A model generated the notes under the pieces. The model was not told the origin of the DNA and did not search any database. It worked only from the letters and a program-made list of their open reading frames with translations. Positions 62,545 to 63,318 of a stretch of 64,000 nt of DNA are shown here, one piece after another (the first letter of the stretch is position 1; each line of letters starts with the position of its first letter). The stretch lies in the sequence record PV648359. One strand, given 5' to 3'. This DNA is from Escherichia phage LF82-1. The position numbers and the translations under genes were made by a program.

Positions 62545-63318
62545 ATGGCAGTAGCAGGACCGTGGATAGGAACTTCTGCAAGAGCCCAGACAGGAGACCC
62601 TTGGATGGGTGGTGCCGCACAGAGATTGAGAATGGGAATTCCGTTTTGGATGAGCAATATGAACGGCCGGTCTGTTGAAGTAATTCACACACTTGGAGCA
62701 GACCATAACTTCAATGGTCAATGGTTCCGAGATAGATGTTTTGAGGCAGGTAGTGCACCTATAGTGTTTAATATCACCGGAAATTTGGTATCATATAGTA
62801 AAGATGTTCCATTATTCTTTATGTATGGCGATACGCCAAATGAATATGTTACTTTGAATATTCATGGTGGAGTTCATATGTGGGGACGAGGTGGTAACGG
62901 TACTGTAAACGGAAACCCAGGCACTAATGGTGGCGATGTAATCCAAAATGATATCGGCGGAAGACTTCGTATTTGGAACTATGGCGTTATTGCATCAGGC
63001 GGTGGCGGAGGTGGTGCAGTGTCATTACAGAATAGCTGGGCGCCAAATGCTACAGCAGGTGGCGGTGGTGGTAGACCATTTGGCCTCGGCGGAGGCGGCG
63101 TTAATTGGCCTGGTGGTAATGCTAGTTATGACGCCCCGGGCGGTGCCGGTTACACTTCCCAATTCGGCGGTGGTAATGGCGGGGATGCTGGAGGTCGGGG
63201 CGGAGATGGATGGGGTAATCACTTATCTAGATCTGGCGGTGGTGCTCCTGGCAGAGCAGTATTCGGAAGTTCACCGTCATGGGGTGCTACAGGCACAATC
63301 TACGGCTCCTGGATTTAA
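62545..63318 (+). CDS. 38: gp38 receptor-binding adhesin (T2 type, glycine-rich motifs)
   Basis: 257 aa from ATG at 62545 with GGAGG SD; conserved N-terminal half then poly-Gly motifs separated by variable segments. Confidence 0.85.

Follow-up and report, generated by a model that had tools for sequence, protein, structure and literature searches.

The glycine-rich region near the end of the 64,000-nucleotide stretch of Escherichia phage LF82-1 DNA analysed here (record PV648359; hereafter the window) almost certainly codes for the receptor-binding domain, a polyglycine-II (PGII) "sandwich", of a gp38 adhesin of the T2/S16 type, whose loops set the choice of receptor. As judged from sequence, the product of gene 38 is a tail-fibre adhesin of the T2/S16 type (Pfam GP38 family) carried by an RB69-like Mosigvirus. 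It is matched by the Pfam families Gp38_N (PF21721; residues 1-39, E-value 6e-20, 71 bits with a cut-off of 25) and GP38 (PF05268; residues 45-257, E-value 3.5e-83, 279 bits with a cut-off of 25) and by PHROG 2056, described as "tail fiber protein; host specificity" (E-value 5e-106). Sequence matches in the PDB are the receptor-binding domain of PP01 gp38 (PDB identifier 9v85; E-value 1e-74) and, over the full length, S16 gp38 (PDB identifier 6f45_D; E-value 4e-47). The gene order is gp37 (59208-62513), gp38 (62545-63318) and t (63364 onwards), with a small separate gp38 gene directly 3' of gene 37 and 5' of the holin gene t, an order common to RB69, Bas46 and the LF82 siblings. The domain matches and this position between gp37 and the holin bear out the adhesin identity that a preliminary description had proposed for this gene, and none of the results speaks against it. 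An annotated CDS is present at identical coordinates in PV660449.1, where gene t is annotated as 63364-64023, and the announcement of the LF82 phages reports their isolation and genome sequences (PMC12509680). The TTG at 62533 is merely a mechanical open reading frame start, and the ATG at 62545 is preferred because of the GGAGG at 62535-62539. The layout of glycine blocks and variable loops is real but already known, having been described decades ago and its structure solved. The window offers nothing new in kind, and it allows confident annotation of the product as an adhesin, not as an "assembly catalyst" or a "hypothetical protein".

The AlphaFold2 model of gp38 (mean pLDDT 91.1, pTM 0.82) predicts a three-domain fold composed of a helical attachment domain, a beta-helix and a PGII sandwich. 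Foldseek searches initiated with this model returned only three significant chains, all from the PP01 (9V85) and S16 (6F45) structures, namely 9v85_C (TM 0.79/0.91, RMSD 1.5 Å), 9v85_A and 6f45_D (TM 0.84/0.86), the next match having an E-value of about 3; the match to 6f45_D and 9v85 includes the first part of the beta-helix (residues 45-113). In residues 151-236 of the model, DSSP finds hardly any helix or strand despite the high confidence there, which is how PGII helices of the predicted kind are expected to appear in DSSP, and the model confidence is lowest in variable segment B (pLDDT 65, residues 161-170). By virtue of the fold match, each glycine block probably adopts the PGII conformation. 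In S16 gp38, ten GRMs form PGII helices and five HVS loops lie distally, the stretch 151-GGGGGGGG-158 being PGII helix 3, and three conserved tryptophans insert into pockets of gp37 (PMC6851490); W7, W20 and W35 in the attachment domain of the window protein are at least 90% conserved among 84 sequences. Loops A-E and their cross-links to OmpC have been described for PP01 gp38 (PMC12892980), and every GRM and HVS deletion in T6 gp38 was lethal (PMC3157838).

On each long tail fibre, one copy of gp38 would cap the trimeric gp37 tip through its N-terminal helical domain, and two loop extensions of the central beta-helix (residues 114-131 and 151-236) would carry about ten glycine-rich blocks, which likely fold, as in the solved homologues, into tightly packed left-handed PGII helices. 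The glycine blocks would be conserved and fixed in length because the PGII lattice accommodates only glycine. The segments linking the helices distally would be the exposed loops A-E, which plausibly touch the outer-membrane protein and whose sequence would set the receptor. The features of the locus are collected in Table 1.

Table 1. Features of gene 38 and its surroundings in the window (nt, window positions; aa, residues of gp38 unless another protein is named; identity, mean pairwise amino acid identity)
Feature	aa	nt	Strand	Basis or remarks
Gene 37, distal long-tail-fibre subunit, tip bound by gp38	1101 aa	59208..62513	+	PHROG 1699, Pfam PF13884, annotation
Peptidase_S74 intramolecular-chaperone domain, gp37 C-terminal	991-1050 of gp37	62178-62357	+	Pfam PF13884
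GGAGG ribosome-binding site		62535..62539	+	5 nt upstream of ATG 62545; read from sequence
Gene 38, gp38 long-tail-fibre tip adhesin	257 aa + stop	62545..63318	+	Pfam PF21721 and PF05268, PHROG 2056, PDB matches
N-terminal attachment domain, predicted to dock on the gp37 trimer	1-44	62545..62676	+	Pfam Gp38_N; model helices 8-16, 21-27, 36-39
Beta-helix, first part	45-113	62677..62883	+	Model strands 46-50, 53-56, 73-77, 81-83, 91-93, 102-106, 111-113
Interval with natural recombination junction, gp37-tip/gp38-N module versus rest of gp38		62681..62786	.	Differences from TH12 and Bas46
Glycine block GRGGNG	114-119	62884..62901	+	G114, R115, G116, G117 invariant
Variable segment A, TVNGNPGTN	120-128	62902..62928	+	Identity 0.31; length 8-16 residues
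GG (129-130) and conserved beta-helix strands (133-150) between two glycine-rich extensions	129-150	62929..62994	+	Conservation, model
Poly-glycine block SGGGGGGA; also a quoted motif	151-158	62995..63018	+	Aligns with S16 151-GGGGGGGG-158; gp38 translation
Variable segment B, 13 residues	159-171	63019..63057	+	Identity 0.19; length 8-15 residues
Quoted motif, 15 residues	171-185	63055-63099	+	gp38 translation
Glycine block, 12 residues	172-183	63058..63093	+	G175, G176, P178 invariant
Variable segment C, GGVNWP	184-189	63094..63111	+	Identity 0.17; length 5-12 residues
Glycine block, 10 residues	190-199	63112..63141	+	G190, A193 nearly invariant; G199 invariant; fixed length
Variable segment D, 10 residues, contains Q206	200-209	63142..63171	+	Identity 0.24; length 10-16 residues
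Quoted motif, 17 residues	208-224	63166-63216	+	gp38 translation
Glycine block, 10 residues	210-219	63172..63201	+	G210, G212, G213, G216 nearly invariant; G219 invariant
Variable segment E, 12 residues	220-231	63202..63237	+	Identity 0.25; length 11-16 residues
Quoted motif SGGGAPG	230-236	63232-63252	+	gp38 translation
Glycine block, 10 residues	232-241	63238..63267	+	G233, G236, A238, V239, G241 nearly invariant
C-terminal strands closing the beta-helix	242-257	63268..63315	+	Model strands 237-241, 245-248, 251-253
Gene t (holin), downstream neighbour, runs past window end		63364..64000	+	Pfam Phage_holin_T, E-value 9e-85

The glycine enrichment of gp38 is far above chance. With 25.3% Gly overall, it is by far the richest of the 68 window ORFs of at least 100 residues (median 5.6%), the share being 34.7% in residues 111-257 versus 12.7% in residues 1-110, and its 774 nt hold 11 of the 15 plus-strand (GGN)3 matches of the 64-kb window (binomial P about 1e-18). 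All four glycine motifs quoted in the preliminary description are present in the translation, between nt 62995 and 63252, and gp38 has about ten such blocks as against these four. The same description placed the glycine region at 62950-63250, of which the repeat layout stands but the start does not, since the domain begins upstream at residue 114 (nt 62884) and GRGGNG (residues 114-119, nt 62884-62901), NGG (residues 128-130), PGGNAS and APGGAG also belong to it. The near-repetitive GGCGGTGGYGG DNA suggested there is only weakly apparent, with just two exact matches (at 62998 and 63061). Direct repeats in gp38 reach at most 25 nt at 68-80% identity, Tandem Repeats Finder (TRF) detected no tandem arrays in the glycine region 62884-63252, and the Gly codons of gp38 are mixed (GGT 27, GGC 21, GGA 16, GGG 1). 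The DNA similarity among the glycine blocks is a by-product of glycine coding and not a repeat array.

The proposed alternation of poly-Gly motifs with short variable segments is evident on aligning related gp38 sequences. Among 36 aligned genes, the glycine blocks have a fixed length and a mean pairwise amino acid identity of 0.68-0.96 (0.48 in the weakest block), the six-glycine run at residues 152-157 having the same length in 35 of the 36 sequences, whereas the segments between the blocks are variable in length, carry indels and are only 0.17-0.31 identical. The same holds across 105 homologues, with conserved glycine blocks of constant length and five intervening segments that are hypervariable and contain indels. 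The invariant columns among 84 sequences are mostly the glycines; G129, L141, I143, N145 and I149 are invariant (model strands at residues 133-135, 141-145 and 148-150), and P244, W246, G250 and IYG at 252-254 are conserved at the C-terminus. At the nucleotide level, identity within the domain peaks in the glycine blocks (0.65-0.83 versus 0.35-0.44 in the loops). Strong purifying selection acts on the specificity domain within the allele class, residues 114-257 for example showing 16 synonymous and no non-synonymous differences from Bas46. Hypervariability of the loops is seen between allele classes and not within one; the enrichment of within-class variable sites in the loops is only marginal (13/51 versus 12/93, Fisher P 0.07).

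The preliminary description also regarded gp38 as a host-range determinant that diversifies by recombination. That such a layout is typical of recombining host-range determinants is the published view, as expressed in the available text of PMC3157838 and PMC12032242 (citing Tetart 1998), and recombination is indeed seen in gp38, both as a junction and as combinations of loop sets with frameworks. TH12 differs from the window at 57 nucleotides in gene nt 1-136 and at 3 in nt 137-771, Bas46 likewise shows 57 up to gene nt 136, with no further difference before nt 243, and the sliding-window identity profile agrees with a junction at gene nt about 136. The recombination junction in the lineage of the window phage is thus at the linker between the N-domain and the beta-helix, outside the glycine region. 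A single loop set is found combined with more than one N domain, more than one framework (residues 144-146, WNY or NNG) and more than one C-terminal tail, and each of two loop sets is found with both frameworks. These were typed by diagnostic residues, which were used instead of single-linkage clustering of the framework and C-tail segments, since the clustering put nearly everything in one type. Diversification in all likelihood proceeds on three time scales. On one, single or clustered substitutions would accumulate in the loops, as in the sibling isolates; on another, the whole specificity domain, or the gp37-tip/gp38-N module, would be exchanged at conserved flanks; and more rarely, exchange would occur at conserved blocks inside the domain.

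Over 66.8 kb (window positions 1..64000 and a further 2.8 kb), LF82-3 differs from the window only by N187R (63103-63105) and P189A (63109) in segment C, a cluster of four substitutions within 7 nt (AAT TGG CCT to CGG TGG GCT), and LF82-2 differs over the same span only by S164R and one change elsewhere. S164R (C63036A, segment B) is carried by LF82-2, -16 and -31. All the sibling changes in gp38 are non-synonymous and all lie in loops B and C; short-term change in gp38 is point substitution in the loops. These changes may have an adaptive value, and S164R and N187R/P189A are candidates for showing how single loop changes tune LF82 porin binding. Searches of the window (up to 2 mismatches), GenBank phages, IMG/VR and 108 cluster representatives yielded no sequence that could have donated the LF82-3 cluster. 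The 43 exact matches from one metagenome scan were each in DNA of 54-74% GC content lacking gp38 homology and are attributed to chance. That the cluster arose by localised multi-nucleotide mutation or micro-conversion in the loop DNA between glycine blocks appears improbable, and if it did, neither ordinary point mutation nor block recombination would describe the mechanism. In their gp38 recombinants, Trojet et al. saw a hint of "highly localized error-prone repair".

The records of RB69, JS10, UPEC01 and other phages in GenBank use the product name "distal long tail fiber assembly catalyst", and T4-type loci (L034-L051) share the first 44-62 residues with the window gp38, with a match to PHROG 1121. 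It is nevertheless extremely improbable that gp38 here is a T4-type assembly chaperone and not a virion adhesin, given that the T4-type relatives match just these N-terminal residues while the full-length match is to adhesin families and two solved adhesin structures, and that the RB69 record's own note names the T2-subfamily gp38 as an adhesin. Moreover, gp37 ends in an S74 intramolecular-chaperone domain and therefore carries its own folding aid. The T4-type chaperone has about 180 residues and lacks the glycine-rich C-terminal domain; the window protein has 257 residues with a full GP38 domain. Another reading takes the GGN-rich DNA to be a slippage-prone simple repeat, a contingency locus at which run length or frame would switch or vary the adhesin. 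GGN codon runs do reach six in gp38, two gp38 records in the database (P0006, of phage Bp7, and P0013) shift near residue 221 into the +1 frame, and the +1 frame is also open in the window (ORF 62948..63325). This reading is scarcely credible in view of the lack of any array in the TRF search, the mixed codons within the runs (GGC GGT GGC GGA GGT GGT), which leave no perfect repeat unit, and the constancy of the six-glycine run and of all block lengths among relatives, indels being confined to the loops; each of the two frameshifted records is an isolated entry, for which a sequencing error or a defective copy is the simpler explanation.

It could also be argued that the glycine-block DNA provides the main internal recombination sites, with single segments freely shuffled as the chief source of new specificities. 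GRMs as recombination hotspots are a published hypothesis (Tetart 1998, as cited in the available text of PMC12032242 and PMC3157838), and the high nucleotide identity of the blocks is in keeping with it. The longest exact matches inside the domain fall at residues 173-180, 114-117 and 151-157, the block at 172-183 being the commonest location of the longest exact match between divergent alleles, and exchanges near glycine blocks are implied by the 144-146 framework, located between loops A and B, which is found in either state alongside one and the same loop set. An engineered cross, too, reportedly gave an exchange "from HVS2 onwards" (preprint 10.64898/2026.04.02.716166). We consider free shuffling rather unlikely, however, as a four-combination test on all pairs of variable segments in 106 gp38 proteins found no pair in which all four combinations of types occur. 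Linkage between loop types is strong in this set (40 sequences are 1-1-1-1-1 and 13 are 2-2-2-2-2), and the variable segments travel together instead of being shuffled singly. The exact nucleotide matches within the domain between divergent alleles (median 11 nt, 90th percentile 16, maximum 26) are also short for T4-type homologous recombination, which reportedly needs roughly 50 bp, a figure attributed to Singer et al. 1982. The junction in the window phage's own lineage, as described above, argues in the same direction, and so do the crosses of Trojet et al., which gave no GRM1-GRM5 exchange and in which the variable segments likewise moved as a linked set. The four clustered substitutions of LF82-3, with nothing else different across 66.8 kb, and the unexplained point mutations reported by Trojet et al. 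in the HVSs of recombinants might instead point to a dedicated targeted mutator of the variable segments, such as a diversity-generating retroelement or other templated process. This is very improbable, as a direct-repeat search found no second copy of any variable segment in gp38 to act as template, the donor searches in the window, GenBank phages and IMG/VR came back empty for the cluster, the changes are not confined to adenines, and pN/pS is near zero in the domain within the allele class, unlike the outcome of a running mutator.

Read as a PGII-sandwich adhesin, the window gp38 finds its closest counterparts in RB69, RB51, FL31, Bas46 (ChristianSchoenbein) and TH12, which have an OmpF-class Mosigvirus/Tequatrovirus adhesin allele at the same gene position and 93-99% nucleotide identity to the window gene (RB69 96.2%; TH12 99.4% over nt 132-773). 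Its N-terminal attachment domain is 89% identical to that of RB69 but only 57-59% identical to those of Bas46 and TH12, relative to which it was exchanged together with distal gp37. The gp38 of Salmonella phage S16 (PDB identifier 6F45, chain D; Dunne et al. 2018) has the same three-domain architecture, in which an N-terminal helical attachment domain and a beta-helix are accompanied by a PGII sandwich whose ten glycine-rich motifs bear hypervariable loops distally, but is only 45% identical, has loops that differ in sequence and length, and binds Salmonella OmpC. The best structural match to the window model is the receptor-binding domain of gp38 from the E. coli O157 phage PP01 (PDB identifier 9V85; PMC12892980), with a target-normalised TM of 0.91, an RMSD of 1.5 Å, 65% identity and similarly placed loops A-E, though its loop sequences are different, it binds O157 OmpC, and the crystal is without the N-terminal domain. 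The gp38 proteins of T6, T2, K3 and Ox2 (GRM1-5/HVS1-4 scheme), studied by Montag and Riede 1987, Drexler 1989, Tetart 1998 and Trojet 2011, are built in the same way, conserved glycine motifs alternating with hypervariable segments, and likewise determine host range, but represent other allele classes (Tsx, OmpA, FadL/OmpF), with unrelated loops and 53-60% identity overall. T4 gp38, a tail-fibre assembly chaperone, is encoded at the same place and is related over about 45-60 N-terminal residues, but it lacks the glycine-rich domain and does not form part of the virion; receptor recognition in T4 falls to the tip of gp37 itself (PMC6851490).

Most T-even phages depend chiefly on gp38 for their choice of receptor, and the protein is of practical use in engineering host range and in predicting receptors from sequence. 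Residues 111-257 of the window protein are identical to those of FL31, Bas46 and TH12, L181I being the sole difference from RB69 and RB51, and the window gp38 has the variable-loop set of OmpF-dependent phages, that is, of the OmpF-specific allele class (RB69/RB51/FL31 type). OmpF is most likely the receptor of this allele, a prediction made because the specificity domain matches those of FL31 (identical) and RB69/RB51 (one residue). As a description of the receptor, "OmpF" may be incomplete, as RB69 and RB51 require OmpF plus FhuA and the LPS core (PMC3157838) and FL31 depends on OmpF and TolC with an effect of only about one log (PMC12032242). Q206L is reported to switch RB51/RB68-type gp38 from OmpF to OmpW (preprint 10.64898/2026.04.02.716166). 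Q206 is present in the window gp38, and the GenBank RB68 gp38 is the RB51 protein and carries Q206, so that the reported switch is not visible in the RB68 record. A comparison of variable segments among phages of different host range, proposed in the preliminary description, was carried out, and the window segments recur unchanged in phages whose isolation hosts were E. coli B, K-12 and LF82; as a test the comparison was poorly framed, however, because the variable segments set receptor choice and not the whole host range. For the phages isolated against the Crohn's-associated strain LF82, the shared specificity domain points to OmpF as the predicted receptor.

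The glycine-rich region belongs to gp38, the adhesin of the tail-fibre tip, whose annotated ATG, with its own ribosome-binding site, falls within the ORF that a mechanical ORF list places over this region. The protein matches Gp38_N (aa 1-39) and GP38 (aa 45-257, E 3.5e-83) in Pfam, and 'tail fiber protein; host specificity' in PHROGs. Megablast matches the gp38 region of the window, with 100% identity and at equal coordinates, to that of LF82-5 and a number of sibling phages (PV660449.1 and others). These are Mosigvirus (RB69-like) phages with 170-kb genomes, obtained from Iowa compost soil with E. 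coli LF82 as host, and the RB69 gene shares 96% DNA identity with that of the window. Each family-defining feature of a gp38 adhesin that could be tested was found, and the reading of the protein as a T4-type chaperone fails its defining features. In many T4-like contigs of IMG/VR (loci L034-L051), an encoded protein is similar to gp38 (38-50% identity) over the first 44-62 gp38 residues only, and these matches are consistent with the T4-type chaperone and the adhesin having the start of the attachment domain in common.

Features of the gp37-gp38-t region and sites of sibling differences (window positions)
Feature	Position (nt)	Strand	Remarks
CDS annotated 'inhibitor of host transcription'	40498-41061	-	
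R50C in this CDS	40914		G to A, LF82-2
Gene 37	59208-62513		1101 aa, upstream of gp38
gp37 Peptidase_S74 domain	62178-62357		aa 991-1050
gp37 tail after the S74 domain	62446-62485		heptad-like
Hairpin GAGGGGC CUAA GCCCCUU	62517-62534		between gp37 stop codon and gp38 ribosome-binding site
ORF from mechanical list	62533-63318		
Ribosome-binding site GGAGG	62535-62539		
gp38	62545-63318	+	257 aa, ATG at 62545
Junction relative to TH12	about 62681-62786		linker to the beta-helix
GRGGNG block	62884-62901		aa 114-119
Alternative-frame ORF	62948-63325	+ (other frame)	125 aa
Four glycine motifs	62995-63252		aa 151-158, 171-185, 208-224, 230-236
Alternative-frame ORF	63025-63222	-	65 aa
S164R	63036		loop B; LF82-2, LF82-16, LF82-31
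N187R	63103-63105		loop C; AAT to CGG, LF82-3
P189A	63109		loop C; LF82-3
Holin gene t	63364 onwards		downstream of gp38

A search of a 5.8-billion-protein collection yielded 108 gp38 cluster representatives with 36-92% identity. Alignments of 105 and 84 of these reveal that the invariant or nearly invariant columns of the C-terminal half are overwhelmingly block glycines, together with R115, R177-P178-F179 and a few framework residues. Among 36 genes with DNA, the glycine blocks are of fixed length with mean pairwise amino-acid identities of 0.96, 0.95, 0.83, 0.48, 0.68 and 0.70, whereas the five intervening segments (loops A-E; aa 120-128, 159-171, 184-189, 200-209 and 220-231) have identities of 0.31, 0.19, 0.17, 0.24 and 0.25 and vary in length by up to 8 residues. 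Thus, the alternation of glycine motifs and variable segments proposed in the preliminary description is real, and is a property of the whole family.

The sequence of gp38 matches two solved structures, the receptor-binding domain of PP01 gp38 (PDB identifier 9V85; E 1e-74) and S16 gp38 (PDB identifier 6F45, chain D; E 4e-47), the latter a full-length protein complexed with the gp37 tip. An AlphaFold2 model built from 84 homologues (mean pLDDT 91.1) retrieved only these two from the PDB using Foldseek, all others having E above 2, and could be superimposed on 9v85_C with a TM of 0.91 (normalised to 9v85_C) and an rmsd of 1.5 Å, and on 6f45_D with a TM of 0.84/0.86. The glycine-rich stretch has hardly any assigned helix or strand, yet is modelled with high confidence, and the single low-confidence block is aa 161-170 of loop B (pLDDT 65). 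The fold is described as a five-ring beta-helix with two extensions bearing ten glycine-rich motifs, left-handed polyglycine-II helices that stack as a three-layer sandwich, with five distal hypervariable loops as the proposed receptor-binding site (PMC6851490); in PP01 gp38, where the loops are called A-E, OmpC cross-links to loops D and E (PMC12892980). The finding of the preliminary description is correct and correctly interpreted, and was already known: Montag, Riede and Henning reported the arrangement of gp38 into constant and hypervariable parts in 1987 (as cited in PMC12892980), followed by the 'glycine core with omega loops' model in 1989, recombination at conserved motifs in 1998, the analysis of glycine-rich motifs (GRMs) and hypervariable segments in 2011 (PMC3157838), the polyglycine-II sandwich structure in 2018, and, in 2025-2026, work on a receptor complex and large-scale receptor screens.

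At the compositional level, glycine makes up 34.7% of aa 111-257, 12.7% of aa 1-110 and 25.3% overall, the highest content among the 68 window ORFs of at least 100 aa (median 5.6%). All four motifs quoted in the preliminary description were found, but the region begins earlier than the 62950 given there, as it includes GRGGNG and a GG at aa 129-130; with PGGNAS and APGGAG counted, the glycine blocks total about ten. On the plus strand, 11 of the 15 (GGN)3 matches in 64 kb fall within the 774 nt of gp38 (P about 1e-18). However, the near-repetitive GGCGGTGGYGG DNA that had been claimed has only two exact matches, the direct repeats, 68-80% identical, reach no more than 25 nt, TRF found no array, and the glycine codons are mixed. 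The DNA of the glycine region is no repeat array, and its reading as a contingency repeat fails the defining features of one. The GGN-rich DNA leaves two alternative-frame ORFs open. In two database entries of gp38, P0006 (phage Bp7) and P0013, the reading passes around aa 221 from the gp38 frame into the +1 frame of the plus-strand ORF; both are probably frameshift errors or defective copies.

Sliding-window identity shows the gp37-gp38-t region to be mosaic. Compared with the window, the Mosigvirus phages TH12 and Bas46 reach at least 90-97% identity from a point inside gp38 onwards but fall below 70% in the final 1.2-1.3 kb of gp37 and at the beginning of gp38, whereas IME281 and EcoM_005 have 83% nucleotide identity over the gp37 end and gp38 and less than 70% downstream. 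TH12 differs from the window at 57 sites in gene nt 1-136 and at 3 in nt 137-771, which places the junction right after the attachment domain; the exchange took in distal gp37 and its binding partner, the gp38 N domain, as one unit. In 106 proteins the five loops form a linked set, and no loop pair occurs in all four type combinations. One and the same loop set is combined with more than one N domain, with either framework sequence at positions 144-146 (WNY or NNG), and with different C-terminal tails; both frameworks are seen with each of two loop sets, which requires exchange inside the specificity domain, close to blocks that are conserved. Where divergent alleles match exactly within this domain, the shared stretches are short, with a median of 11 nt, a 90th percentile of 16 nt and a maximum of 26 nt, and are centred on [13 protein letters not shown] and the poly-glycine block. 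The linkage and the short matches agree with Trojet et al., whose crosses gave no GRM1-GRM5 exchange and who suggested the flanks as preferred sites. Thus, recombination, as the preliminary description had it, is a real source of gp38 diversity, but it acts mostly by replacing blocks, and as an internal target the DNA of the glycine blocks is weak at best.

The window was compared with LF82-2 and LF82-3 over 1..59100 and 59046..66818. LF82-3 differs over 66.8 kb only by N187R and P189A, a cluster of four substitutions within 7 nt, and LF82-2 only by S164R and R50C (1..66818). All sibling changes in gp38 are non-synonymous and lie in loops, with no synonymous change. The siblings come from one compost pool, and their differences from the window are almost confined to these loops. 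Searches of the window, of phage sequences in GenBank, of IMG/VR and of the gp38 cluster representatives gave no donor for the four-substitution cluster; metagenome pattern matches were rejected as chance matches in high-GC DNA.

Within the allele class (RB69, RB51, FL31, Bas46 and TH12) the specificity domain is strongly conserved. Synonymous/non-synonymous differences from the window over aa 114-257 are 16/0 in Bas46, 13/0 in FL31, 22/3 in RB51 and 58.5/17.5 in IME281, and residues 111-257 of FL31, Bas46 and TH12 are identical to the window, RB69 and RB51 differing by L181I. RB69 and RB51 need OmpF plus FhuA plus LPS core (PMC3157838), FL31 depends weakly on OmpF and TolC (PMC12032242), and a 2026 preprint mapped an OmpF-to-OmpW switch to Q206L in this allele. 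Given this resemblance, and Q206 in the window protein, OmpF is the predicted primary receptor. Phages with identical loops were isolated on E. coli B, K-12 and LF82; hence phages that share their loops need not share a host range, and counting identical segments in phages of different host ranges against the interpretation, as was proposed, would mislead. In GenBank, the gp38 proteins of RB51 (L060) and RB68 (L061; both 300-1073) are identical and carry Q206, while the preprint ascribes the OmpW specificity of RB68 to Q206L; the RB68 stock of that study seems to differ from the sequence in the database.

The C-terminal end of gp37 carries a Peptidase_S74 intramolecular-chaperone domain and, after it, a tail with a heptad-like pattern ([15 protein letters not shown]), for which TRF gives 1.9 copies of a 21-nt repeat; this arrangement is consistent with the C-terminal processing of T2-type gp37 reportedly described by Drexler and colleagues in 1986. 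The GC-rich hairpin that follows gp37 has no T-run after it, and its 61-nt context folds at -16.9 kcal/mol (z-score -1.9), not clearly above chance. GenBank product names for gp38 are inconsistent ('distal long tail fiber assembly catalyst', 'tail fiber protein', 'hypothetical protein', 'tail protein and peptidase', 'adhesin'). Several cluster members bear labels of Salmonella, Enterobacter or even Bacillus cereus assemblies, probably because of phage DNA inside bacterial assemblies. A 303-aa database protein from an E. coli assembly (P0088), which combines Peptidase_S74, Gp38_N and GP38, resembles a product of read-through from the end of gp37 into gp38, or of their fusion.
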